Shown: piece after piece, positions 1 to 42,059 of the stretch
Numbering within the stretch: the stretch's first letter is position 1
How the letters are laid out: every line of letters starts with the position of its first letter
Virus record (IMG/VR): IMGVR_UViG_3300012816_000037
Location: 1-42,059 of that record
DNA: 42,059 nucleotides
Reading direction: 5' to 3' (one strand)
Origin: a virus
Lineage: Duplodnaviria; Caudoviricetes
Program-made: the position numbers and the translations under genes
The notes under the pieces: model-generated
The model's input: the letters and a program-made list of their open reading frames with translations, nothing else
Told to the model about the DNA's origin: nothing
Databases searched by the model: none

Positions 1-180
1 TTGCGATCTGGGCCTTAAGCTGATGACGTTTCTTGGATATGATAAGTTCGGTTTGCCGAATGCGGCTGTCGGCATTCTCACTTATTTTCCAGGTACAGGC
101 CACAAGCGCCCGGCCAAGTCAACGAAGGCAGGCGGGCGCCCCTGAGCTTTTCCAATACAGTTAGTGGAGAGATCACCTTG
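1..180 (+). other. Host intergenic region ending in RBS (GGAGAG) and TTG; resembles the Pseudomonas ppsR-ppsA intergenic region and ppsA start
   Basis: gtggagagatcaccTTG matches my recollection of the Pseudomonas ppsA leader, but the sequence after TTG is not ppsA. Recalled, not searched. Confidence 0.5.
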
Positions 181-189
181 TACTCTCCA
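165..189. other. Candidate attL core
   Basis: Inverted repeat TGGAGAG-N11-CTCTCCA at the host/phage junction, followed by arm-like repeats. Confidence 0.5.
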
Positions 190-242
190 GCTCGTGGCGC
201 TTCCCGAGTATACGGGGCTTCGGCATCCAGCTCAATCCCACG

Positions 243-271
243 TCTAACACTTTTCTAACATGGTTCTAACA
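243..271 (+). repeat. Three TCTAACA direct repeats with 11-bp period; putative integrase arm-type sites
   Basis: TCTAACA at 243, 254 and 265; related motifs at 585, 595 and 42013-42053. Confidence 0.7.
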
Positions 272-283
272 CCTCCAGCGCCC

Positions 284-322
284 GCCATTTAATGGGTCGT
301 TACCACTCCACCATTAAATGGC
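284..322. repeat. 12-bp inverted repeat, possibly equivalent to the T7 M-palindrome
   Basis: GCCATTTAATGG (284-295) and CCATTAAATGGC (311-322), about 140 bp before the terminal repeat. Confidence 0.6.
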
Positions 323-457
323 CTGCAAGGCATCTCTTAGTTCTCCATCAGGGTCTTAGTGGTCTCATTAGGTAGGTCCACTTGAGTCTCGCCTAAGTGT
401 AACTTTTGGTGCGCATAAAGAGCCTTTAAGAATCTGGTAGAAAAATCTGAGAGACCA

Positions 458-705
458 TCTCACTGTAACTACCGCAGCATTACCCCCGTATACCCCTCAC
501 GCGCTCACATACAGGCGCATTAAGGACCCCAGGGGTCACTATACGCACACGCTAAGGCCCTGGAGGCCCCGGAATCACTGGGTTTCTAACAGGTTCTAAC
601 ACTGGGTAGACCTATGGATACTCACGGGCTGTAGGCCACCTGGAGAGCCCAGGGGAGGGCATTAGGGCTCACTCTTCGATCATCCAGGTCTCTGTGTCTG
701 TCCCT
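458..705 (+). repeat. Single-copy T7-type terminal repeat (about 248 bp)
   Basis: Left junction AAAAATCTGAGAGACCA|TCTCAC and right junction TCTGTCCCT|ATCTGT resemble the T7 terminal-repeat boundaries as I recall them. Confidence 0.7.
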
Positions 706-712
706 ATCTGTA
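706..712 (+). terminator. Concatemer-junction (class II) pause/terminator-like motif
   Basis: ATCTGTA immediately after the repeat end, versus T7 CJ ATCTGTT. Confidence 0.55.
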
Positions 713-820
713 AGCGCTCCCTAAGTTCTCCTCCTGGTCTCTCCCTGGGAATACATGAGGCGCTATCCCTACTCAGTAGGACCACACTTTGAGCACATGG
801 AATTCTTTTTGAAAAACTTG

Positions 821-848
821 TTGACTTAAACTCTATGGTTGATACGAT
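821..848 (+). promoter_or_regulatory. Strong early host sigma70 promoter (T7 A-like)
   Basis: AT-rich UP element, TTGACT (821-826), 16 nt spacer, TGn-extended TACGAT (843-848); TTGACTTAAA as in T7 A1. Confidence 0.8.
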
Positions 849-894
849 GAGCCAACTCCAGACAGAGACGCTCTTAAAGAACTCTGAAAGGACT

Positions 895-907
895 CGCTCT
901 TTAACAA
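895..907 (+). promoter_or_regulatory. boxA antitermination element
   Basis: CGCTCTTTAACAA matches the boxA consensus; degenerate copy CGCTCTTAAAGAA at 869-881. Confidence 0.75.
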
Positions 908-937
908 CTACAAAGCAACGCAATAGAACGTAACGAC

Positions 938-997
938 AGTGATTCAAGTCGTGAGCCTGTGCCATTAGGCGTCTGCGGGCTCACCGCTGGATTCACT
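938..997 (+). promoter_or_regulatory. Long hairpin, probable RNase III processing site
   Basis: GTGAGCCTG pairs with GCGGGCTCAC, with an extended AGTGA/TCACT stem, before the first gene. Confidence 0.6.
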
Positions 998-1028
998 AAC
1001 GAAACGTAACGCAAAGGAATACAACGCA

Positions 1029-1430
1029 ATGACTCAATTCAATGAAATGCAAGTGGCTCGCTTCACCGCTGGTTACCTGGAGGCTGCTCTATGGGCTTCC
1101 TCGGACACTCACCCTGAGACCCAGGAGCACGTCTGTCTGGATGACTACCAGTGGGCTCCAGGTGAGGCCGCCAAGGCCTGCAAGGATGTCCAGGACTTTA
1201 TGGAGTATGCCGGCGAGCAACTCCTGGAGTACGCCAAGGTGCGTGTATGTCCCAATGAGGACGTATGGGAGTGCGCCGGGCATGACTTCTGGTTGACCCG
1301 TGGTGGCCATGGATCTGGCTTCTGGGATCGTGGCCTGGGCGAGCTGGGTGAAAAGCTCACGGCTGCCACTAAGACCTTCGGCTGCCTGGACCTGTACCTG
1401 GGAGAGGATGAGCTGGTCTATGTAGCCTGA
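1029..1430 (+). CDS. Acidic early phage protein (GHDFWLTR..HG.GFWDR motif), function unknown
   Basis: 133 aa, AAGGA RBS, first gene after the early promoter (0.3 position). Confidence 0.85.
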   Translation: MTQFNEMQVARFTAGYLEAALWASSDTHPETQEHVCLDDYQWAPGEAAKACKDVQDFMEYAGEQLLEYAKVRVCPNEDVWECAGHDFWLTRGGHGSGFWDRGLGELGEKLTAATKTFGCLDLYLGEDELVYVA

Positions 1431-1480
1431 GTGCCACAAGTCGAGCACCTATAGCCTGGGTGCTCCGCTGGTAACACTCA
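1428..1480 (+). promoter_or_regulatory. Hairpin, probable RNase III site
   Basis: TGAGTG..GAGCACC pairs with GGTGCTC..CACTCA. Confidence 0.6.
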
Positions 1481-1525
1481 ATGAAACGCAACGACAACGT
1501 AAAGCAACGTAAAGGAATCACCATA

Positions 1526-1780
1526 ATGCAAGCCATCATCACCAAATACTTCGGGCCTACCAATTTCCGAGGCTCCCGCGTGGTCGCTAAGTGCGAAGCG
1601 GGCTCTATCGCCGTGCCTTACGACGATGCCCTCAATAGCGAGGACAACCACAAGGCAGCCGCTCGGGCTCTGGCTGACAAGCTGGGCTGGAAACCGAACG
1701 GCACCAATCGCTACGCCAAGTTCGTCTCCGGTGGCCTGCCTAATGGCAAGGGCTACGCTCACGTCTTCGTTAACGAGTGA
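1526..1780 (+). CDS. Early hypothetical protein (MQAIITKY.GPTN..GSR type)
   Basis: 84 aa from ATG 1526 after AAGGA; paralog of 2321-2623. Confidence 0.85.
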   Translation: MQAIITKYFGPTNFRGSRVVAKCEAGSIAVPYDDALNSEDNHKAAARALADKLGWKPNGTNRYAKFVSGGLPNGKGYAHVFVNE

Positions 1781-1826
1781 TTCAATTAGAGCCCATGGGT
1801 TAGCTCGTGGGCTCTGGTGGAATCAC
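1777..1826 (+). promoter_or_regulatory. Hairpin, probable RNase III site
   Basis: GTGATTC..AGAGCCCATG pairs with CGTGGGCTCT..GAATCAC. Confidence 0.6.
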
Positions 1827-1858
1827 ACCTCAATGAAACGTAAAGCAAGGTAACGATA

Positions 1859-2317
1859 ATGACTAACGCAATGACTCTCCAAGAACGCCACGCTATCCTT
1901 GACGCCCGTATTGACGCATTGTCGCTGGACTATGTGATTAAGCTGGTGGAGTCCGAGTTGGGCCGCTGGGTACTGAATCCAGAGTTGGCTCGCATGGCCC
2001 TCAGACAGATGCACCCAGATGACCAGGAGCGCCTCCTGGCTCCGGCCACCATCACCATCTCTAAGCTCCGTGTGGCAGACCTCAAGGGCCTGCAGCCTCA
2101 CCGTGAGCAAGCCCAGGCGCGTGACTACTCGACCTCTGAACACTTCGTCCAGGTGACACACAGGGGCCAGACCTATCGGTTCGGTCTCTTCGATTGCTGG
2201 CGTGGTCCGTACTGGATGCACGATCTGGCGTCTGGCTCCGTTTTCACTGGCGACCTGCAGGCCTGTAAGGACTTCGCCAAGCTGTGCACTGAATGTGTCC
2301 TGGAAGGCGAGGCGTGA
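1859..2317 (+). CDS. Early hypothetical protein
   Basis: 152 aa, phage-like codon usage, packed in the operon. Confidence 0.75.
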   Translation: MTNAMTLQERHAILDARIDALSLDYVIKLVESELGRWVLNPELARMALRQMHPDDQERLLAPATITISKLRVADLKGLQPHREQAQARDYSTSEHFVQVTHRGQTYRFGLFDCWRGPYWMHDLASGSVFTGDLQACKDFAKLCTECVLEGEA

Positions 2318-2320
2318 GTC

Positions 2321-2623
2321 ATGTTCGCCATCCATGCGCGGTACATGCCGCAGACCAGGACTAAGGGTGCCCGGCTGAAGCTGGCCGGTGCTGTCACCGA
2401 GCGGGTCTTCCAGTACGACGAGAAGTTGTCCCTGGATGAGAACCTCAAGAATGCCTTCCGTATCTATGCGTCCCTCGAATGCTGGGTCGGTGCCTGGTCC
2501 TATGGCCAGCTACCGGATGGCTCGTGGGTCGCTACCTGTGCCACCTTCGAGCGCGACACCTTCAGCGTAGGGCAGGCAACCATGGCGGAGAGGCTCCATC
2601 AGGTCTGGACGCGGGAGCTATGA
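2321..2623 (+). CDS. Early hypothetical protein, paralog of 1526-1780
   Basis: 100 aa; shared AI..Y..T..G.R, YD..L...N and GxLPxG motifs. Confidence 0.75.
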   Translation: MFAIHARYMPQTRTKGARLKLAGAVTERVFQYDEKLSLDENLKNAFRIYASLECWVGAWSYGQLPDGSWVATCATFERDTFSVGQATMAERLHQVWTREL

Positions 2624-2982
2624 CAGGCCCGTGGCTGCGCCTGCCTGATTACCTGAAGGTGGTCACGACAGACGGTCTCAAGTGGGCGCAGATCCTGGCG
2701 ACATACTCAGTGGCCATTGATGGGGAGCTGATGGACTTCACGCTCCACAAGCATCACAAGGACGCTCGCCTAATGGTCACTGAGTTTCGCACGGGCTCGT
2801 CTATCGGGTGGCTCAAGGGTGCCTGGCAGACTGACCGCAAGATAACCGACAGGTACGCGACTCAGGATCTCCGGCGCTTCCTCCAGGAGCATGTGGAGGC
2901 GAAGAGGCGACAAGTCTCTGACGCCAGAATCCGCTCTACCATAGCGAAACGGCAGGGTGTCAACCACTTGTCGGGTCGGTAG
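2620..2982 (+). CDS. Early hypothetical protein
   Basis: ATGA overlap with the upstream gene, GGGAG RBS, 120 aa. Confidence 0.7.
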   Translation: MTGPWLRLPDYLKVVTTDGLKWAQILATYSVAIDGELMDFTLHKHHKDARLMVTEFRTGSSIGWLKGAWQTDRKITDRYATQDLRRFLQEHVEAKRRQVSDARIRSTIAKRQGVNHLSGR

Positions 2983-3141
2983 TGCACTTTCATTTAACCA
3001 GTTGCAAGCCGCCCCGCGCTGCGTAGAATCAGGCGCCGGGGCTCACCCGCAGAACACGCAAAGAGCCTCAGACTGCAATGGGACTCTTTGCAGGTTGTGT
3101 GCAAGAACGCAACGCAACGTAAACGAACGGAAACAACGAGC

Positions 3142-3888
3142 ATGACGCACGTACTTTTAAAGGCCGGCACGGCCATCCCCTCAAAGGACAAGCTCCATCC
3201 CGAGCTGCGTCCACACATGCCCGCCATCGAGCGCCTCGCTAAGCTGTCTGAGGATCAACACGGGCTCACCTGGGACAAGCTCCTAAGCGGGCCTCCTGTC
3301 CATCACAGCGACCTTGAAGAGCTCAATCGCTCGGTATTTGAGCACGGCCGCTCAGACCGCGCTGGGCGTTACTCCTCTGGCGTCTACTCGATTCCCTTCC
3401 TGCACCCCGAATACGTGGATGACCTGCTGACAGAGATCGCGGCGATGTCCTTCGAGGTCAATGCAGACGAGGAGGCCGAGGTCCAGATCCCAGAGGTCAC
3501 ACTACAAGACCGCTGCCCGTCTCTTCACGCCGCCCTGGCGTCTCTGTTCATGCACGTTGTGGGACCACTGGCCAAGATCCTTTATCAGTTGGACCCGAAG
3601 TTCATCCAGTCCATCCAGTTCGCTCAGTACCGCCCGCAGGAGGTCGCAAAGGGGCATTGGCACCACGACCAGGATTCAGACATCACTCTGGTGGTTGCCC
3701 TATCGGACGATCATAAGGGTGGGGGCACGATGGTTAAGCCGCAGGGCTTTGGGGAGCCTTTCGAGGTCCCACAGTTGCCCTTGGGCCACGCGATGCTATT
3801 CCAGGGGTCGAGGACCCTTCACTATGGAATGCCAGTAACGGAAGGTGCTCGAAACCTTCTGGTCTTCTGGAGCACCTTGAGGAAGTAG
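3142..3888 (+). CDS. 2OG-Fe(II) dioxygenase (prolyl/lysyl-hydroxylase-like)
   Basis: HxD (WHHDQD), GGGT, distal H (TLHYGMPVTEGARNLLVFW) with conserved R. Confidence 0.88.
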   Translation: MTHVLLKAGTAIPSKDKLHPELRPHMPAIERLAKLSEDQHGLTWDKLLSGPPVHHSDLEELNRSVFEHGRSDRAGRYSSGVYSIPFLHPEYVDDLLTEIAAMSFEVNADEEAEVQIPEVTLQDRCPSLHAALASLFMHVVGPLAKILYQLDPKFIQSIQFAQYRPQEVAKGHWHHDQDSDITLVVALSDDHKGGGTMVKPQGFGEPFEVPQLPLGHAMLFQGSRTLHYGMPVTEGARNLLVFWSTLRK

Positions 3889-3892
3889 AGCG

Positions 3893-4075
3893 TTAGTCTT
3901 CTTCGTCCTCGAAGCCTTCGTCCAGGTACAGCTCATCTATAGCGTCCTCATCGGACACCAAGAAATCTGCCTCCAGGGATGGAGTGAAGACAGCATCGAA
4001 TGCCCGCAGCGCAGTGTTAAGGGTCTCATCCGTGACCTTAGCCTGGAGTAGGGTATTGCCTTGCTGGTTTGCCAT
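3893..4075 (-). CDS. Small, highly acidic antisense protein (60 aa); candidate lysogeny regulator or DNA mimic
   Basis: Fills the gap convergent with the oxygenase; tail DEDAIDELYLDEGFEDEED; upstream leftward promoter; weak RBS. Confidence 0.6.
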   Translation of the reverse strand: MANQQGNTLLQAKVTDETLNTALRAFDAVFTPSLEADFLVSDEDAIDELYLDEGFEDEED

Positions 4076-4102
4076 CTGGATCTCACTACTGAGTTGAACG
4101 TC

Positions 4103-4447
4103 ATGAACGCAACGGAATGGAATGCTCCCTCCGCCAGATCCCTGGCACGGGTCATCAACGAGACTGTGCTCGTGGATTCGCAAATTGCGCGCTTAAACGT
4201 GGAATTGCGCAAAACCTACCAGCGCGGAAAGCTCTCGTCAATAAATCCCATAGATTTAGCTGCCGAACGGCGGAATACTCTGCAGTGTCTCAAGCGTCTG
4301 CGGGTTCGAAAGCAAGCTCTAATTGCCGCACTCAAACAGAACGCCTCTCGTTCCTGGACGGAGCGTGGAGACTTCACCCTTCTCATGGCTACAGGAGTTT
4401 ACATCCCATGCGCACACAAGCAGTCCGCTCAATTAAATTCTATGTGA
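4103..4447 (+). CDS. Basic, probably helical hypothetical protein
   Basis: 114 aa ORF, but atypical codon usage and weak RBS. Confidence 0.5.
   Translation: MNATEWNAPSARSLARVINETVLVDSQIARLNVELRKTYQRGKLSSINPIDLAAERRNTLQCLKRLRVRKQALIAALKQNASRSWTERGDFTLLMATGVYIPCAHKQSAQLNSM
4213..4241 (-). promoter_or_regulatory. Leftward sigma70 promoter for the acidic ORF
   Basis: TTGACG (4241-4236), N17, TGn-extended TAGGTT (4218-4213); adjacent inverted repeat TAAATC-N5-GATTTA (4242-4258). Confidence 0.55.
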
Positions 4448-4662
4448 AAGCCCCGTCGATTGGGACGGATGGGCAAATCAGCTACAAGTCCATGTCTACG
4501 TTCTTCAGCGTCGGGCATGAGTACGACAAGGCCACAGTGGAGGGGATCATCATGATCCTTGATGACTCCCTCCTGGAGGTGGCCCTGAAGAGCTCGGCAG
4601 GAACCAAACGCTTCGTTTATCAGATGGCGGACATCCTCGGCCGTATTGAGGTGACTGAGTAG
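4408..4662 (+). CDS. Hypothetical protein
   Basis: 84 aa from ATG 4408 after AGGAG; phage-like codon usage. Confidence 0.7.
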   Translation: MRTQAVRSIKFYVKAPSIGTDGQISYKSMSTFFSVGHEYDKATVEGIIMILDDSLLEVALKSSAGTKRFVYQMADILGRIEVTE

Positions 4663-4684
4663 TGGATGACTCAGGTGGCACCTC
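4648..4684 (+). promoter_or_regulatory. Hairpin (RNase III site or pause) at the end of the early block
   Basis: GAGGTGAC-TGAGT pairs with ACTCA..GCACCTC. Confidence 0.45.
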
Positions 4685-4703
4685 ATGTAAGAGGTCTTCA
4701 GTA

Positions 4704-4723
4704 TACTGGTTGGACATACAGTA
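4704..4723. promoter_or_regulatory. LexA (SOS) box overlapping sigma70 elements
   Basis: TACTG-GTTGGACATA-CAGTA fits TACTG-N10-CAGTA; it sits in the spacer of leftward TTGAAT-N17-TATACT (4728-4700) and just upstream of a rightward TATACT (4731-4736). Confidence 0.75.
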
Positions 4724-4857
4724 TTCAAGCTATACTGCCCTGGCTTCCCGGTGGCACACAACGATAGGACTTTCTACCCAGCGGCTGAGAAGGCCACTCC
4801 CTATGTCCTGCGGGGCATGGGGTAAGACCTCATTAGGCGGTGGAAGAAGGAGGACAG

Positions 4858-4998
4858 GTGCCCTCTGCAGGAGCACGTCTCTGGGATCAACATGCGCTGG
4901 ACATAGCGGGCTTTTGCGTGGGCAAGGACCAAGCTGGACGGGCATTTTACCGGGAGACGACTGCCGCAGCGGTGAGTGAGCGCCTGGCCCAGATTTAA
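4858..4998 (+). CDS. Small hypothetical protein (46 aa, MPSAGARLWDQHALDIAGF...)
   Basis: AAGGAGG RBS and GTG start; stop overlaps the phage promoter; below the ORF-track cutoff. Confidence 0.5.
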   Translation: MPSAGARLWDQHALDIAGFCVGKDQAGRAFYRETTAAAVSERLAQI

Positions 4999-5020
4999 AA
5001 GCCCTCACTACTTAGAGAGA
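4996..5020 (+). promoter_or_regulatory. Phage RNAP promoter upstream of the RNAP gene
   Basis: TAAAAGCCCTCACTACTTAGAG matches the window consensus AAAACCCTCACTAWTAGG. Confidence 0.7.
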
Positions 5021-5072
5021 CCTTTCCGGATCCTCTCAGTCCTCCCTGGTGGTCCAGGTGGGTCCTCTAAGT
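5010..5072 (+). promoter_or_regulatory. Hairpin, probable RNase III site (R1-like)
   Basis: ACTTAGAG pairs with CTCTAAGT in a long stem before gene 1. Confidence 0.6.
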
Positions 5073-5097
5073 TCAACGCAAAGGAACGTTGCAGTAA

Positions 5098-7767
5098 ATG
5101 AGTGTCCTTCTCCCTGAGCAACAAGATTTCTCCGACATCAAGCATTCCCCAAAAGCCTTCGAGACCCTCTCCAGGTTGTACGGGGAGGACCTGGCGGCCC
5201 TTCAGCTCTCCCTTGAGCATGAGGCATACGTCCTGGGTGAAGAGAGGTTCCGTAAGGGCCTGGAGGCTGCCATGGCCTCGGGCGAATATGCAGACACCAC
5301 AACCGCTAAGCCAGTCCTGGAGGCACTGGTCCCTATGTTCGTCGCTCGGTACAACGAGTGGCTCGAACACCAGAACACTAAGGTCCGGCGCAAGCATGTG
5401 GCCATCGACAAGTTCCGCGTACTGAAACCCGAGGTGGCCGCGATTGTTACGATCAAGCGCACCCTCGGGATTCTTGCGTCTACCTCAGGCACTCACACCG
5501 TCCAGCGCGTGGCTATCTCCATTGGCCAGTCCATTGAAGACGAGCTGCGCTTTGGTCGTATCCGTGAGCAAGAGGCCCAGCACTTCAAGCGAGTCATCCG
5601 GCCAGCCCTGGATCGCCGCAATGGCCACCTTTATAAGAAGGAGTTCATGAAGGCGGTGGAGACCAACATGGCCACGGACGGCCAGCTCGACACCTGGCTC
5701 CCTTGGGAGGTCAACCGGGCCGACATCGGCAAGGATGAGCATTTCCAGGTGGGGATCAAACTCATGGAGATCCTTATCGAGTCCTCGGGCTTGATCGAGG
5801 TGGTCCGCGAGAACGCCGGGCACGCAGCAAGTGACTGTGAGGCTGTCCACCTGCATCCAGCGTGGGCCGAGAAGCTCTCGCAGCGCGCCTTCAGCCTGGC
5901 CGGCATCGCCCCAGTCCATCAGCCGTGTGTCGTCCCTCCTAAAAAGTGGGTCGGTGTGCGGGGCGGTGGGTACTGGGCACAGGGCCGTAAGCCTGTAAGT
6001 CTCATCCGGGTCCGCACCAAGCGAGCTCTGGACCGCTACCGGGATGTCCACATGCCGGAGGTGGTGAAGGCCGTTAACCTGGCCCAGGAGTCTGCCTGGT
6101 CGGTGAACCTCAAGGTCCTGGAGGTGGCCAACGCGCTGTCCGAATGGCAAAACGTACCCATTGATGACTTCCCGGCTCTGGCCAAGGAAGAGCTCCCCAT
6201 GCGCCCGGAGGACATCGATGAGAACGAGGCGAGCCTGAAGGTCTGGAAGAAGGACGCCACCAAGGTCTACCGCCGCGAGAAGGCGCGTTCATCTCGCAGG
6301 CTGCGGCTGGAGTTCACCCTGGCCCAGGCCAACAAGTTCTCGGAGTATGAGGCCATCTGGTTCCCCTACAACATGGACTGGCGCGGCCGGGTCTATGCCC
6401 TCCCGATGTTCAACCCGCAAGGGAACGATATGACGAAGGGACTCCTGCAGGCTGCCCACGGGGAGCCTATCGGAGCTGAAGGGAAAATGTGGTTGGCTAT
6501 CCATGGGGCTAACACGGCCGGCGTGGACAAGGTGGGCTTTGCAGAGCGCCTGAAGTGGGTCGAGGACAACCAGGAGCTAATCCTGGCGTGTGCTGCAGAT
6601 CCCCTCACTAATACGGAATGGATGTCCATGGACTCTCCGTTCTGTTTCCTGGCGTTCTGCTTTGAGTGGGCAGGAGTCCAGGAGCACGGCGAAGCGTGGG
6701 TATCGCGACTACCTATTGCTTTCGACGGCTCCTGTTCCGGTATTCAGCACTTCTCCGCAATGCTCCGCGACGAGCGTGGTGGCCGTGCTGTAAACCTCCT
6801 CCCATCCACCGAAGTCCAGGACATTTACCGTCTCGTGGCCCACGAAGTCATCCTGCGGATGCAAGTGGACATGGAGCACGGCACTGAGGACCAGGTGGAA
6901 TTGGTCACGGACGAGAAGACCGGAGAGATCCGGGAGGTCCGCACCATTGGCACCCGAACGCTTGCGAAAGGCTGGGATACCTACGGTGTGACCCGCTCGA
7001 CCACTAAACGTTCCGTGATGACGCTGCCTTACGGATCAAAGGAGTTCGGCTTCGCTGACCAGCTCATGGTGGACATCATCCGTCCAGCCATCGACAGAGG
7101 GCAGGGCCACATGTTCACTCACCCGGACCAGTTTGCTCGCTATCTGGCGAAACACATCTGGGATTCTGTGAGTGTCGTAGTGGTTGCCTCCGTCGAGGCC
7201 ATGGAGTGGCTCCAGCGCGCCGCCAAGCTGATGGCCAGCACCGTCAAGGACAAGAAGACCAAAGAGGTCCTCAAGCCCTGCATGGCGGTCCACTGGATTA
7301 CCCCGGACGGCTTCCCGGTCTGGCAGGAGTACTTCACTCCGGTCAAGCGCCGGGTGGACCTGATGTTCCTGGGTAGCCACAGGATGCAGGCCACGGTCAA
7401 CGTCCGGGACTCTGAAGAGATGGACCCGAGGAAGATGGAGAGCGGGGTGTCCCCGAACTTTGTCCATTCCCAGGATGGTTCTCACCTCCGGAAGACCGTG
7501 GTGAAAGCCCGTGAAGCCTACAGCATCGAGTTCTTCGCCTTGATCCATGACTCCTTCGGGACTATCCCAGCGAAAGCCGGGGGCATGTTCCGGGCAGTTC
7601 GGGAGACCATGGTGGAAACCTACGAAAACAACGATGTCCTGGCGGACTTCCGTGAGCAATTCATGGACCAGCTCCATGAATCCCAGCTCGACAAGATGCC
7701 GCCGCTCCCAGCCTCTGGGTCCCTGGATCTCCAGGAAATCCTCAAGTCTGAGTTTGCTTTCGCTTAA
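5098..7767 (+). CDS. gp1: Single-subunit T7-like DNA-directed RNA polymerase
   Basis: DWRGRVY, AFDGSCSGIQH, RSTTKRSVMTLPYG, PNFVHSQDG, IHDSFGT, C-terminal FAFA. Confidence 0.99.
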   Translation: MSVLLPEQQDFSDIKHSPKAFETLSRLYGEDLAALQLSLEHEAYVLGEERFRKGLEAAMASGEYADTTTAKPVLEALVPMFVARYNEWLEHQNTKVRRKHVAIDKFRVLKPEVAAIVTIKRTLGILASTSGTHTVQRVAISIGQSIEDELRFGRIREQEAQHFKRVIRPALDRRNGHLYKKEFMKAVETNMATDGQLDTWLPWEVNRADIGKDEHFQVGIKLMEILIESSGLIEVVRENAGHAASDCEAVHLHPAWAEKLSQRAFSLAGIAPVHQPCVVPPKKWVGVRGGGYWAQGRKPVSLIRVRTKRALDRYRDVHMPEVVKAVNLAQESAWSVNLKVLEVANALSEWQNVPIDDFPALAKEELPMRPEDIDENEASLKVWKKDATKVYRREKARSSRRLRLEFTLAQANKFSEYEAIWFPYNMDWRGRVYALPMFNPQGNDMTKGLLQAAHGEPIGAEGKMWLAIHGANTAGVDKVGFAERLKWVEDNQELILACAADPLTNTEWMSMDSPFCFLAFCFEWAGVQEHGEAWVSRLPIAFDGSCSGIQHFSAMLRDERGGRAVNLLPSTEVQDIYRLVAHEVILRMQVDMEHGTEDQVELVTDEKTGEIREVRTIGTRTLAKGWDTYGVTRSTTKRSVMTLPYGSKEFGFADQLMVDIIRPAIDRGQGHMFTHPDQFARYLAKHIWDSVSVVVVASVEAMEWLQRAAKLMASTVKDKKTKEVLKPCMAVHWITPDGFPVWQEYFTPVKRRVDLMFLGSHRMQATVNVRDSEEMDPRKMESGVSPNFVHSQDGSHLRKTVVKAREAYSIEFFALIHDSFGTIPAKAGGMFRAVRETMVETYENNDVLADFREQFMDQLHESQLDKMPPLPASGSLDLQEILKSEFAFA

Positions 7768-8310: not shown

Positions 8311-9356
8311 TGGCAGCACAATCCGTAATCCTCGAAACCAATCCAGCCGGTCCTGTGGACTTCTCCGAGAACGCCATCCGTAAAGTCTTCGAGACTACCG
8401 GGTGGGTCATCGCGGACACCAAGGAAGATGGCGTCCAGTTGAACCTGGTGGTAACCGAGGATCGCGCTGTCCAGTTCCTCTCCCGAGCTGGTAAGTTCCT
8501 CCCAGGGATGCAGGCCGGATACAACCGCGACCTTAACGGTCATGGCCGCTTTGCTGACCTCCTCCTGGATGACCAGTGCATCTACCCGAACGGCTTCATG
8601 CTGCAGGCGGAGATTGTGGTCCCTGGACAACCTGCCGAGTTCACTGCCGGCCTCCTGCGCCGCGCCACCGCCAAGCCTGGCAAGCCACTCCTGGAGCTGG
8701 CCGACATCGAAGGTCACGTCTTTGGTGTGGCTCCACTGGATGCCATCCGCGAAGGCCGTGACCTCGAAGTCACCCACGGCATCATGAAGGTCCACTCGGA
8801 GCTCATGGTCGCCCTGCTGCAGAAGCACGTCCCACAGATCAAGTGGAAGATGGTCGAGAGCCTCGATGTCTTCACTTACGAGGGCCTGGCGACTCTCTTC
8901 GAGACCCGTCGAGCCGAAGGTAAGGAAGGCTTGGTCGTTAAAGATCCGAATGCCACCTGGAAGCGCGGCAAGAAGGTTGGCCAGTGGAAGATGAAGCCGG
9001 AAGACACCATCGATGGCACGGTCTGCGGTCTGGTATGGGGCACTCCCTGCCTGGCCAACGAGGGCAAGGTGATCGGCTTCGAGGTTCTGCTGGAGGATGG
9101 CCATGTGGTCAATGCCTGCGGAATCACCAAAGAGCAGATGACCGAATTTACCGACCTTGTAGCAGAGCACTACGGTGTTTCCGTGGACGAGCTGATGCAC
9201 GCAAGTGGGTCGGACTTCGGCAATACGGCGGGAGAAAACCCATTCTACGGTTGGTCCGTAGAGGTCTCCTTCATGGAGCGCTTCGAGGACGGATCCCTGC
9301 GCCACCCTTCGTTCAACCGCTGGCGGGGCATCTCGTCTCCTGAGGTGAAGGAATGA
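8310..9356 (+). CDS. gp1.3: ATP-dependent DNA ligase
   Basis: KEDG adenylation motif, EGLVVKD, WKMKP, GSLRHPSF. Confidence 0.97.
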   Translation: MAAQSVILETNPAGPVDFSENAIRKVFETTGWVIADTKEDGVQLNLVVTEDRAVQFLSRAGKFLPGMQAGYNRDLNGHGRFADLLLDDQCIYPNGFMLQAEIVVPGQPAEFTAGLLRRATAKPGKPLLELADIEGHVFGVAPLDAIREGRDLEVTHGIMKVHSELMVALLQKHVPQIKWKMVESLDVFTYEGLATLFETRRAEGKEGLVVKDPNATWKRGKKVGQWKMKPEDTIDGTVCGLVWGTPCLANEGKVIGFEVLLEDGHVVNACGITKEQMTEFTDLVAEHYGVSVDELMHASGSDFGNTAGENPFYGWSVEVSFMERFEDGSLRHPSFNRWRGISSPEVKE

Positions 9357-9664
9357 GTGCCATTATCGGCGCGGCAGTGGGAGCCTCCATCGGGGCTTCC
9401 ATGAGTCACTCCAGTGGCTCGGCCAGTGACCAGGAGCTATCCATCATCTTCCTGGTAGTCCTCTGGATCCTCCTTTGGATCTACTGCTGGGCGACCCGGA
9501 ATGACTACCTGAATCACTGGGGCTATCTGGGCATCCGGCCATCTAAGCCCATCACCTGGTGGCCGAAGACGGTCATCCACTACGTGAGCTTTGGGCTGGC
9601 CATCGGCTTGCTCATCCTGGGCGTCATCGCCTCGATCTACACACTGGTAAACTCCTCCTGGTAG
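9353..9664 (+). CDS. Small membrane protein (2 TM segments)
   Basis: Hydrophobic stretches IIFLVVLWILLWIYCW and FGLAIGLLILGVIASIY; ATGA overlap. Confidence 0.75.
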   Translation: MSAIIGAAVGASIGASMSHSSGSASDQELSIIFLVVLWILLWIYCWATRNDYLNHWGYLGIRPSKPITWWPKTVIHYVSFGLAIGLLILGVIASIYTLVNSSW

Positions 9665-9686: not shown

Positions 9687-9881
9687 ATGTTCCGCACTTT
9701 CGACATCCTCGTTAAGGCCATCCTGATCCTCCTCGTGCTTGCCACCATCCTCATGCTCTCCATCGGAGCCGGATTGAGCGCCTGCACCCCACTGATATTG
9801 CTGGGAGTGGTCATAGCATGGCCTTGGTTCTCCTACCGCAAGCGTAGGCAGCGCCGCTTGGATGCCTCGAAGATCGCGTAA
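9687..9881 (+). CDS. Small membrane protein (2 TM segments, basic tail)
   Basis: 64 aa, hydrophobic, RKRRQRR tail. Confidence 0.7.
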   Translation: MFRTFDILVKAILILLVLATILMLSIGAGLSACTPLILLGVVIAWPWFSYRKRRQRRLDASKIA

Positions 9882-18233: not shown

Positions 18234-18442
18234 TGGATGACTACCTCAAGTTCCTCTACCTCATCAAGATGGAGCCCAAAACCTACAAGTCCAACTTCGC
18301 CCGTGAGTTCGCCCAACTGGCCGCAGAAGCCTCCAGCCGAGGGCATATTACTGCTCTTAACGGTGCTGGGATTATCAGCGGCTATTGGACACTCACTGCG
18401 AGCGGTACTCGCTTACTGAAACAACATGGGAGGATTCAATGA
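18233..18442 (+). CDS. gp5.7: gp5.7-like host transcription inhibitor
   Basis: DYLK..PKTYKSNF..AEASSRGHI..WTLTASGTRLLK. Confidence 0.85.
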   Translation: MDDYLKFLYLIKMEPKTYKSNFAREFAQLAAEASSRGHITALNGAGIISGYWTLTASGTRLLKQHGRIQ

Positions 18443-40562: not shown

Positions 40563-42026
40563 TCATACACCGAAGGAGACCTTGAGCGCCTCTGCCATCT
40601 TACCGACACCCAGGCGAGAGTCCCCACCGTAGAGATCGAAGGTGATGGTTTGTGAACTGTGGCCCAGGATGGACTGGACGATGCTCACCTGAATAGCGTG
40701 GTGCTTCATTAAGCCGGCCAGGGAGTGGCGAAGGGAGTGGTACGTCAAGCCTTCGCCGGAGTCATGCTGCAGGACATCCCTCAAGGTCTCATTGAGAACC
40801 CTGGTGAAGTTGTGGGCCACACGGTCAAAGAGCTTGTCCCCTTCGAGGACCTTCACGTACTCAAGGAATGCCTTGAGGTCAAACCCGAGGGCTCCGTCCG
40901 TGAGAGGGACCACACGCTCCGAGTGTTTATTCTTGAGGGTCTTGTCTTCGTTGGTATTCAGGTCAATGACCCATTCATCGCCAATCCTGCGGACATCCGC
41001 TTTGGTCAACTGATAAATCTCACCGATACGCGCCCCAGTGATAGCCCCGAGGGACATCGCCCAGCGCTTCCACGAGGACACCGGTAGCTCTCCCATAGCC
41101 TTCATCAAGGTAGCCAACTGCGCCTCTGTGAACGCCTTCCGGCCGCTCTCTGCGCCTTTGCTGATCTTCAGGCCCTTGTTGAAAGCCTTCTCAATGTAGC
41201 TGTTGTTCTCTGCCCAAGTGAGAAGGGTCCCCAATCGGGTGAGCAACTTGTTGACCGTGAGAGGCTTGCGGCCGTCCTGGAGGCGCGCCTTGAGCTTCAC
41301 CATATCCGCACGGGTGTGGGTCTTGAGGTTTAGCTCCTTGCCTGTCGAGGGATCCGTGAGGGCCTCTGCCAGGGTCTTGAAGGCGGACTTCATATCCCTG
41401 ATGGATGCCGGAGCGAGCTGGTCCGATTGCTCCTCCAGGTAGAGGACACCCAGAAGGGACACAGTGACAACATCCGGAACACCTTCCTGGGTTTCTTGAG
41501 GCTGGGCTGCAGGGGCACTCACTGGTGCCTTTGGATTCTCCTGGGCCTGGAGCTCCTCGATGATGTTCGCGAGTGGCGTAGGGTCACCCCTGTGGAGTCG
41601 TTCCTGGGCAGCCATGACGATGCGGACACCGGTTTTAATAGCCTTGACACGATCAACGGTCATTGGACTACCTTCCTGAATCATCTGGAGATCCTCCAGC
41701 AATTCAGAGTATTCCAGGCTAATTGCGGTCCTGTCGTCACTGGAAACAAGCTGCCAAAGGAGGCTTTCTGCCAGCTCCCGAAGAGGAACTACCAGGGTCT
41801 CCCATGTGTCTTCAGCGTGCTCTAAATGGAACACTTTGAGGGCGGCCTCGATTCGGCGGCTGTAGCGCATTGCAGTTTCTCGGTGGCGTGTACGTAGTGA
41901 AATCGTCAAAGTCTGCTTAGAGACTCCTGCAGGACGCAGGCGAAGGTAGTAGACTCCTCCCGCTCGGCGGTATACCCACGGGGACGCCAGAGGGCATAAG
42001 ACCTGGTGACAGTTTTCTAACACCAT
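40563..42026 (-). CDS. int: Tyrosine recombinase/integrase (start uncertain, 42026 or 42059)
   Basis: TGARIGE, K(TLKN), YHSLRH, LGHS and DLY give a full R-K-H-R-H-Y set; N-terminal arm-binding-like YRRAGGVYYLR..ISLRT. Confidence 0.95.
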   Translation of the reverse strand: MVLENCHQVLCPLASPWVYRRAGGVYYLRLRPAGVSKQTLTISLRTRHRETAMRYSRRIEAALKVFHLEHAEDTWETLVVPLRELAESLLWQLVSSDDRTAISLEYSELLEDLQMIQEGSPMTVDRVKAIKTGVRIVMAAQERLHRGDPTPLANIIEELQAQENPKAPVSAPAAQPQETQEGVPDVVTVSLLGVLYLEEQSDQLAPASIRDMKSAFKTLAEALTDPSTGKELNLKTHTRADMVKLKARLQDGRKPLTVNKLLTRLGTLLTWAENNSYIEKAFNKGLKISKGAESGRKAFTEAQLATLMKAMGELPVSSWKRWAMSLGAITGARIGEIYQLTKADVRRIGDEWVIDLNTNEDKTLKNKHSERVVPLTDGALGFDLKAFLEYVKVLEGDKLFDRVAHNFTRVLNETLRDVLQHDSGEGLTYHSLRHSLAGLMKHHAIQVSIVQSILGHSSQTITFDLYGGDSRLGVGKMAEALKVSFGV

Positions 42027-42053
42027 CTTAACATCGGCATCGTTTACTAACAG
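42013..42053 (+). repeat. Arm-type repeats near attR
   Basis: TTTTCTAACACC, TCTTAACATC and TTACTAACAG; same motif as 243-271. Confidence 0.6.
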
Positions 42054-42059
42054 ACTCAT

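Follow-up and report, generated by a model that had tools for sequence, protein, structure and literature searches.

A LexA1-type operator in a predicted divergent promoter upstream of the RNA polymerase gene of a T7-like prophage

T7-like phages were long regarded as strictly lytic, and the silencing and induction of T7-like prophages have no settled model, hence the interest of the prophage described here. The DNA analyzed is IMG/VR record IMGVR_UViG_3300012816_000037 (Duplodnaviria; Caudoviricetes), the full 42,059 nucleotides (nt) of which are called the window below. The window holds an intact T7-like prophage with the full T7 gene order, including a T7-like RNA polymerase (RNAP; gene 1, 5098-7767, + strand, 889 amino acids (aa), intact) and a tyrosine integrase at the right end (40563-42059, - strand, 498 aa). 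A LexA1-type operator, TACTGGTTGGACATACAGTA, a CTG-N10-CAG palindrome with TA flanks, lies at 4704-4723, 394 bases upstream of the RNAP gene. From its sequence, host LexA1 is very likely to bind this box, which is a real and probably functional SOS element. The surrounding block, 4696-4737, is tentatively read as a LexA-repressed divergent promoter that would act in this lineage as an accessory SOS input priming gene 1. The box likely provides this lineage with a start signal that responds to damage, a variation not previously described on the control of prophages through LexA. As the prophage is intact, has neither MarR nor CI, and carries a 42-bp element and a 60-aa open reading frame (ORF) that can both be mutated, its induction and immunity are directly testable.

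The operator and its overlapping promoters

The bare CTG-N10-CAG pattern occurs at chance level (19 found against 19.4 expected). The box at 4704-4723 ranks within the top 8 of 2283 host CTG-N10-CAG sites, these being the sites with at most two mismatches over the outer 16 positions of a consensus. On a LexA matrix trained on nine host sites it scores 20.9 bits, the top non-training site of the 43 scoring at least 12 bits; the second-best site in the window reaches 9.2 bits. Host boxes score below it, namely recA (15.7) and recN (17.7), both held out of training, and lexA (18.7, leave-one-out). Two lexA genes are present in the host, and a LexA-type box precedes the copy on C120. LexA1 and LexA2 boxes differ in Pseudomonas putida, and a LexA2-type pattern occurs nowhere in the window.

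The initial annotation had reported the site from the sequence alone, and its letters, its fit to a LexA site and its position in the spacer of a leftward promoter all stand as written. That predicted sigma70 promoter, TTGAAT-17-TATACT (4728 to 4700, - strand), scores 11.9, the highest sigma70 value on either strand of 1-5100 by approximate weights. The E. coli recA promoter likewise has its operator in the spacer. On the other strand, a predicted promoter directed toward gene 1 (4710-4736, + strand) has its -35 element, TTGGAC, inside the operator, a 15-nt spacer, and the -10 element TATACT at 4731-4736, which agrees with the earlier description of a rightward TATACT with a poor -35. The longer motif CTATACT (4730-4736), an RpoS-type -10 noticed after the fact, occurs once in the window. 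This motif has been described as the RpoS -10 element in P. putida (PMC11784136). With the box kept and its flanks randomized, an equally good overlapping promoter arose in 1 of 3000 trials, and one random-flank trial in 3000 placed CTATACT next to the box, the latter motif having been picked post hoc. At the level of pattern, the site overlaps promoter elements in the manner of a LexA1 operator. No terminator-like site was found between the block and gene 1, 1-5200 had no Rfam match, and the predicted RNA fold of 4740-5100 barely beats shuffled sequences (z -1.75).

Relatives were found in three public runs, and contigs X5, X6, and X7 extend into the block. Over 4655-4815, X7 differs from the window at 22 positions, of which 19 were listed and three are presumably near the ends of the compared piece. 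The listed differences comprise four in the 11 positions of 4685-4695 and 15 in the 45 positions of 4738-4782, leaving between these diverged flanks a 42-bp block, 4696-4737, with none. The probability that 4700-4736, which spans the elements first annotated, would remain unchanged is 5e-4 to 5e-5 given the local divergence and 0.04 at the contig-wide rate. The loose end of X5 retains the CTG half of the box, with one central base altered and the leftward -10 changed to TATAGT.

The loss of a leftward ATG in X7 (4685 A>T) and three second-position changes in a rightward 33-aa ORF make the X7 pattern unlike that of a reading frame. These same changes led to rejection of a leftward 85-aa ORF and of the 33-aa ORF as targets of the box, and a 46-aa ORF at 4858-4998 was rejected because its ribosome-binding site derives from the codons of a decayed Bro-N gene. 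A possible second box at 4733 was supported neither by matrix scoring nor by the X7 comparison.

The slot before gene 1 and LexA boxes in T7-like relatives

The box had been placed in the largest non-coding stretch before gene 1. This is correct in that the slot between the last early gene and gene 1, 4663-5097, is the largest internal gap; it fails in that 181-1028 is longer and has no recognized gene, and in that ~4817-5000 is the remnant of a gene. What remains there is a degraded 3' portion of a Bro-N gene, of the kind annotated as 'antirepressor' (4778-4998, + strand), with in-frame stops at 4823-4825 and 4904-4906 plus a frameshift. Window positions 4817-5000 align to the 3' end of the Bro-N gene of locus L016 with a score of 100.5, against 48.5 for the best of 200 shuffles, and weakly to the other four targets. 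An intact Bro-N gene occupies the slot in L011, L015, L016, L017, and phage phTUNSv. Since the 3' part of the slot matches the 3' end of Bro-N, the block would stand where the front of the gene was. The box-bearing 5' part of the slot gave no significant alignment to Bro-N genes, and descent of the box from Bro-N codons is for that reason unproven.

Boxes were surveyed in 142 RNAP-bearing loci, reduced to 48 by removal of near-duplicates: 11 close lineages (RNAP identity at least 68%), four more distant phages that are integrated or bear an integrase, and 33 others. A box lies within 5.2 kb upstream of gene 1 in four of the 11 close lineages (the window, L013, L238, and L241), where upstream stretches were shortened in some lineages and the slot was covered in all 11. 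In L013, whose RNAP is 77% identical, there are three boxes, one of them directly after the same small gene as in the window and alike at 14 of 16 core bases. The box of L238 is at the left end only, and that of L241 lies 5' of a leftward 85-aa moron-like gene. A counterpart of the left-end box of L013 and L238 is recognizable in the window at 670-689, with its CTG half lost. The slot is box-free in the integrase-bearing 3MF5, phTUNSv, G461, G462, and G465, and also in L011 and L239, which share the attachment (att) site of the window. As most close temperate relatives go without it, the box probably represents an addition rather than the lysogeny switch of the group. In an RNAP tree, from which L263 was omitted as too short, the window branches first and L013 falls in an unresolved basal group, so both shared ancestry and independent gain are possible.

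Among the four more distant phages, G11 (L285) is boxed and G332 has a degenerate box. The G11 box, at 3315-3334, lies 1.3 kb 5' of gene 1, just after a -10-like hexamer and before an oxygenase gene, and the G332 box, at ~3465458, lies 26 bp 5' of a phage promoter. G11 was obtained by exposing a lysogen to UV (PMC10142737). Across the survey, boxes occur in 5 of 15 integrated or integrase-bearing loci and in 5 of 33 others (Fisher P=0.25, or 0.12 with six ghunavirus-type phages added), and the box does not separate integrated from lytic phages in this comparison, which the initial annotation had proposed as a test.

Several further searches bear on the reach of this comparison. The only match of the slot to phages by blastn was a 22-mer in Aeromonas phage JELG-KS1 (L286). 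Two scans of viral contigs for DNA patterns added no member to the clade, two known loci being recognized among the 80 matches listed by one of them and the others left unanalyzed, and an integrase query against viral contigs had no match. An RNAP search of genome contigs returned two short, irrelevant loci only, and every match from the genus-level searches (400 genomes twice; 150 relatives) was either a fragment or a T7-like prophage of greater distance (G229, G332, G358, G148, G494, and G445).

Proposed mechanism and competing explanations

In the lysogen, LexA1 would repress both promoters of the 4696-4737 block. Upon DNA damage, RecA-driven cleavage of LexA would free the rightward promoter, of RpoS/sigma70 type, and its transcript would enter gene 1; the little RNAP made would then be amplified via its own promoter near 5000. 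This predicted phage-RNAP promoter (4994-5017, + strand, with a CCCTCAC core at 5002) lies directly 5' of gene 1 and is predicted to form a self-amplifying loop with it. The same promoter precedes gene 1 in all six ghunavirus-type phages fetched and so is not a temperate trait. Because RNAP would amplify itself from ~5000, induction would bypass the silencing of early promoters upstream. The leftward transcript would run antisense, opposing the last early genes, the first of which it would reach is a 72-aa gene (4444-4662, + strand) with a weak match to T3 gene 1.05. Elsewhere in the prophage, gene 18237-18442 is syntenic with one for which the 3MF5 annotation gives a putative sigma-S inhibitor; following induction, its product could switch off the RpoS-type promoter.

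Silencing in the lysogen would lie elsewhere. It must come from something common to relatives without a box, and the candidate is a leftward acidic ORF of 60 aa together with an antisense transcript from 4241-4213, which may hold the lysogen silent. The ORF (3893-4075, - strand) follows a 2OG-Fe(II) oxygenase gene, belongs to a small, unnamed, conserved family of unknown function, and is a candidate immunity or lysogeny factor; its protein has a low-confidence one-helix model and no match in the PDB. A small leftward acidic ORF in this position is clade-wide, in two subfamilies, and is unannotated in 3MF5 and phTUNSv. It is the sole clade-shared feature that runs against the T7 grain, and it was not seen in more distant oxygenase-bearing loci. 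The second leftward sigma70-like promoter, TTGACG-17-TAGGTT (4241-4213, - strand), has no LexA box and would leave the ORF independent of LexA. It lies inside the gene for a 114-aa basic protein (4103-4447, + strand), and a leftward TTGAC-17-TAxxTT promoter recurs inside this gene in 5/5 members of the window's subfamily, 137-154 nt 5' of the acidic ORF, where it falls on a TCA codon, the choice for 3.9% of serine codons here.

A number of observations count against the proposed role of the block as an SOS input to gene 1. Nine of the 11 close lineages have no box in the slot, the exceptions being the window and L013; the L013 box, moreover, is without a good overlapping promoter on either strand. 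Five of the 33 other loci are boxed. One is JELG-KS1, which was chosen for its box match and has no annotated integrase; it carries the identical 22-mer and further sites, with LexA-like boxes at 92, 198, and 215 (left end) and at 4896, just 3' of gene 1. The other four are enterobacterial-type loci (L045:486, L062:500, L242:438, and L243:4425), one identical to Citrobacter phage SH4 over 201 bases and one near Klebsiella phage VLCpiA3a, in which the box abuts the TTGAC of an early promoter; a 10-base indel deletes the CAG half in related loci, so these four boxes may be incidental. In the window itself, the rightward promoter is poor at -35 (7.2 against 11.9 for the leftward one). Conservation of the block with the rightward promoter included comes from one contig, X7, at a depth of 4.3, and X6, which ends at 4724, has four differences, two outside the block and two unplaced, possibly in the box. 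The matrix is partly circular because its training set was seeded with a consensus sequence. Finally, the operator core CTGGATGGATATACAG is a very frequent variant among phage contigs (of 122 matches, 45 reach at least 20 bits), so the resemblance of the L013 box need not mean shared descent.

Other explanations account for parts of the same evidence. The leftward promoter alone may matter: SOS induction would then yield antisense RNA across 4662-4103 along with additional 60-aa protein, and so adjust immunity or the early genes, gene 1 not being directly affected. This is a possible but doubtful account. The leftward promoter is the strongest sigma70 match of the early region, its spacer holds the operator, and both of its hexamers persist in X7 and, in functional terms, in X5; yet the 60-aa ORF has its own box-free promoter, the sole leftward ORF adjoining the LexA-type promoter loses its ATG in X7, and the invariant block reaches 9 bases past the leftward -35, through CTATACT. 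A broader proposal, rated unlikely, is that the group has no DNA-binding repressor at all, that the acidic protein and antisense transcript would silence the prophage, and that LexA would gate an RpoS-type promoter priming the RNAP loop. If so, induction would require DNA damage plus the stationary-phase sigma factor, and LexA boxes in the early region would recur among T7-like phages, temperate and lytic alike, as a trait not yet reported. Somewhat less probable still is a relic, in which the operator and promoters once served the Bro-N gene or arrived with an SOS moron and are now near-idle. The Bro-N gene downstream is indeed broken, this operator type is frequent in phage morons, the L241 box precedes a moron-like gene, and the left-end box of the window has decayed; but X7 leaves the block invariant while its immediate flanks differ at 4/11 and 15/45 positions, and in relatives the intact Bro-N genes, which are box-free, begin at the upstream stop codon or close to it.

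An operator acting without its own promoter, either by blocking the passage of host RNAP into gene 1 or by titrating LexA as a sink while the phage infects, is improbable here, although it may hold for the boxes of integrase-less T7-like phages. In its favor, the box follows the last early gene by 42 bp in the window and 0 bp in L013, the boxes of L013, L238, and JELG-KS1 lack a good promoter overlap, and boxes across T7-like loci are enriched upstream of gene 1 (12 sites over 189 kb, compared with 1 over 357 kb downstream, a count that includes the box-selected window and JELG-KS1 and becomes 10 against 0 without them). This enrichment is inflated by the larger amount of non-coding DNA upstream of gene 1, the promoter hexamers are conserved here together with the box, and a single operator is judged a weak sink or roadblock. 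The initial annotation had proposed that host LexA directly gates RNAP expression, a leftward regulatory RNA, or both, so that induction needs no phage-encoded cleavable repressor. The corresponding model makes host LexA the only prophage repressor, gating gene 1 alone, with phage GIL01 as a precedent (PMC4551915). As the initial annotation had noted, no CI/Cro-like gene was recognizable: no helix-turn-helix family (Pfam, E<=0.02) was found in the 119 non-core ORFs of at least 30 aa (the remainder of 430 ORFs overlap core genes), no repressor family was found among 55 proteins in PHROGs, and both prophage flanks are host genes, but several early ORFs match no family at all. Neither the 114-aa protein, a predicted helical hairpin without a helix-turn-helix, nor a 152-aa protein without a usable structural look-alike gave a regulator fold. 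Still, the predicted main early promoter, TTGACT-16-TACGAT (821-848, + strand), and a second one, TTGCAA-16-TAGAAT (3002-3029, + strand), are free of LexA boxes, and a single weak terminator-like site (2212-2235) separates them from gene 1; LexA at 4704 would be unable to stop their initiation. The box-free slots of the integrase-bearing phages and of the two loci with the same att site also argue against LexA as the only repressor, which is accordingly rated very unlikely. What survives of that model is a strong, locally conserved operator over two-way promoter elements, and what is not supported is LexA as the prophage silencer. A chance match in decaying DNA is barely credible: when the full window was shuffled under a Markov model, 2 of 200 shuffles attained the score of the box, and against chance stand its register with the promoters, the local conservation, and its recurrence among relatives.

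The proposed accessory SOS input has partial precedents. In GIL01, a temperate Bacillus tectivirus without a stress-sensitive repressor of its own, a host LexA box in the main early promoter is needed for lysogeny, as are small phage proteins (PMC4551915). The window differs in that its main early promoters are box-free and most of its relatives have no box; GIL01, in turn, has a Gram-positive operator, does not integrate, and has no phage RNAP. Phages 186 (Tum), N15 (AntC), and Gifsy (GfoA/GftA) resemble the window in having a promoter-overlapping LexA box outside the immunity region, near an antirepressor-type slot (PMC3121763). Unlike them, the window has a broken Bro-N gene in place of a small, functional-length antirepressor gene, and no cognate repressor was recognized; the LexA promoter has no small intact ORF immediately under its control, given the broken Bro-N gene, the leftward ATG lost in X7, and the self-promoted 60-aa ORF.

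Among T7-like phages, LUZ100 shares with the window an integrase and a phage promoter directly 5' of gene 1, from which its authors propose positive feedback primed by a host-RNAP transcript (PMC10134795). In LUZ100 and other MarR-type phages, a MarR gene and the integrase lie upstream of gene 1, whereas the window has no MarR gene and its integrase lies on the other strand, at the distant end of the prophage. The authors of the LUZ100 paper, which also relays the MarR model of other temperate T7-like phages, hypothesize a MarR model and did not obtain a stable lysogen, and LexA, SOS, and mitomycin go unmentioned in the main text (PMC10134795). Phages 3MF5 (NC_054890.1) and phTUNSv (PV620260.1) have the same layout as the window, including the small leftward ORF that follows the 2OG-Fe(II) oxygenase gene, with a box-free slot that is empty in 3MF5 and holds the intact Bro-N gene in phTUNSv. 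Phage vB_PaeM-G11 is likewise integrase-bearing, T7-like, and UV-recovered, with an unreported early LexA-like box (PMC10142737), and differs in its RNAP (63% identical), its left-end integrase, and its box before the oxygenase gene. A term search of the main text of the JELG-KS1 paper found no LexA, SOS, or integrase (PMC10974468), and a literature search, with most subscription journals outside its scope, found no report of LexA control in a T7-like phage.

Prophage ends, host, and other features

The prophage is bounded by an attL core, TCACCTTG, at 173-180 and a second copy, attR, at 42111-42118, right of the window at a ppsA-like start codon; the flanking host genes are taken to be ppsR and ppsA from their translations. 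Insertion at this start codon brings a new GGAGG ribosome site. The att site is common to the window, L011, L238, and L239. Repeats of TTCTAACA near both prophage ends (244-272, 585-605, and 42014-42051), kept in L011, L238, and L239, are probably integrase arm sites. A leftward TTGAGC-17-TATACT at 235-207 would point at the integrase gene in the excised circle only, so integration may cut the gene off from this promoter.

The host is inferred to be Pseudomonas from its 62.6% GC, its two lexA genes, and the hosts of the nearest phages. Of the named phages, Warsawvirus 3MF5 and phTUNSv come nearest, with RNAPs 70-71% and integrases 65-66% identical. On protein identities, the T7 gene order, the reverse-strand integrase at the right end, and the nearest RNAP are those of a Warsawvirus-like member of the Studiervirinae.

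A boxA-like GCTCTTTAACAA at ~895-907 lies 3' of the main early promoter and also occurs in L013, L011, and L239; it suggests that the early transcript is antiterminated. Directly upstream of gene 1, a long hairpin (5010-5073, + strand) is a candidate RNase III site by analogy with T7, and a small hairpin at 5074-5091 puts the ribosome site of gene 1 in its loop, which could damp translation of the gene. Downstream of the ligase gene, small hydrophobic ORFs at 9353-9664 and 9687-9881, with no firm family, are possible superinfection-exclusion genes.

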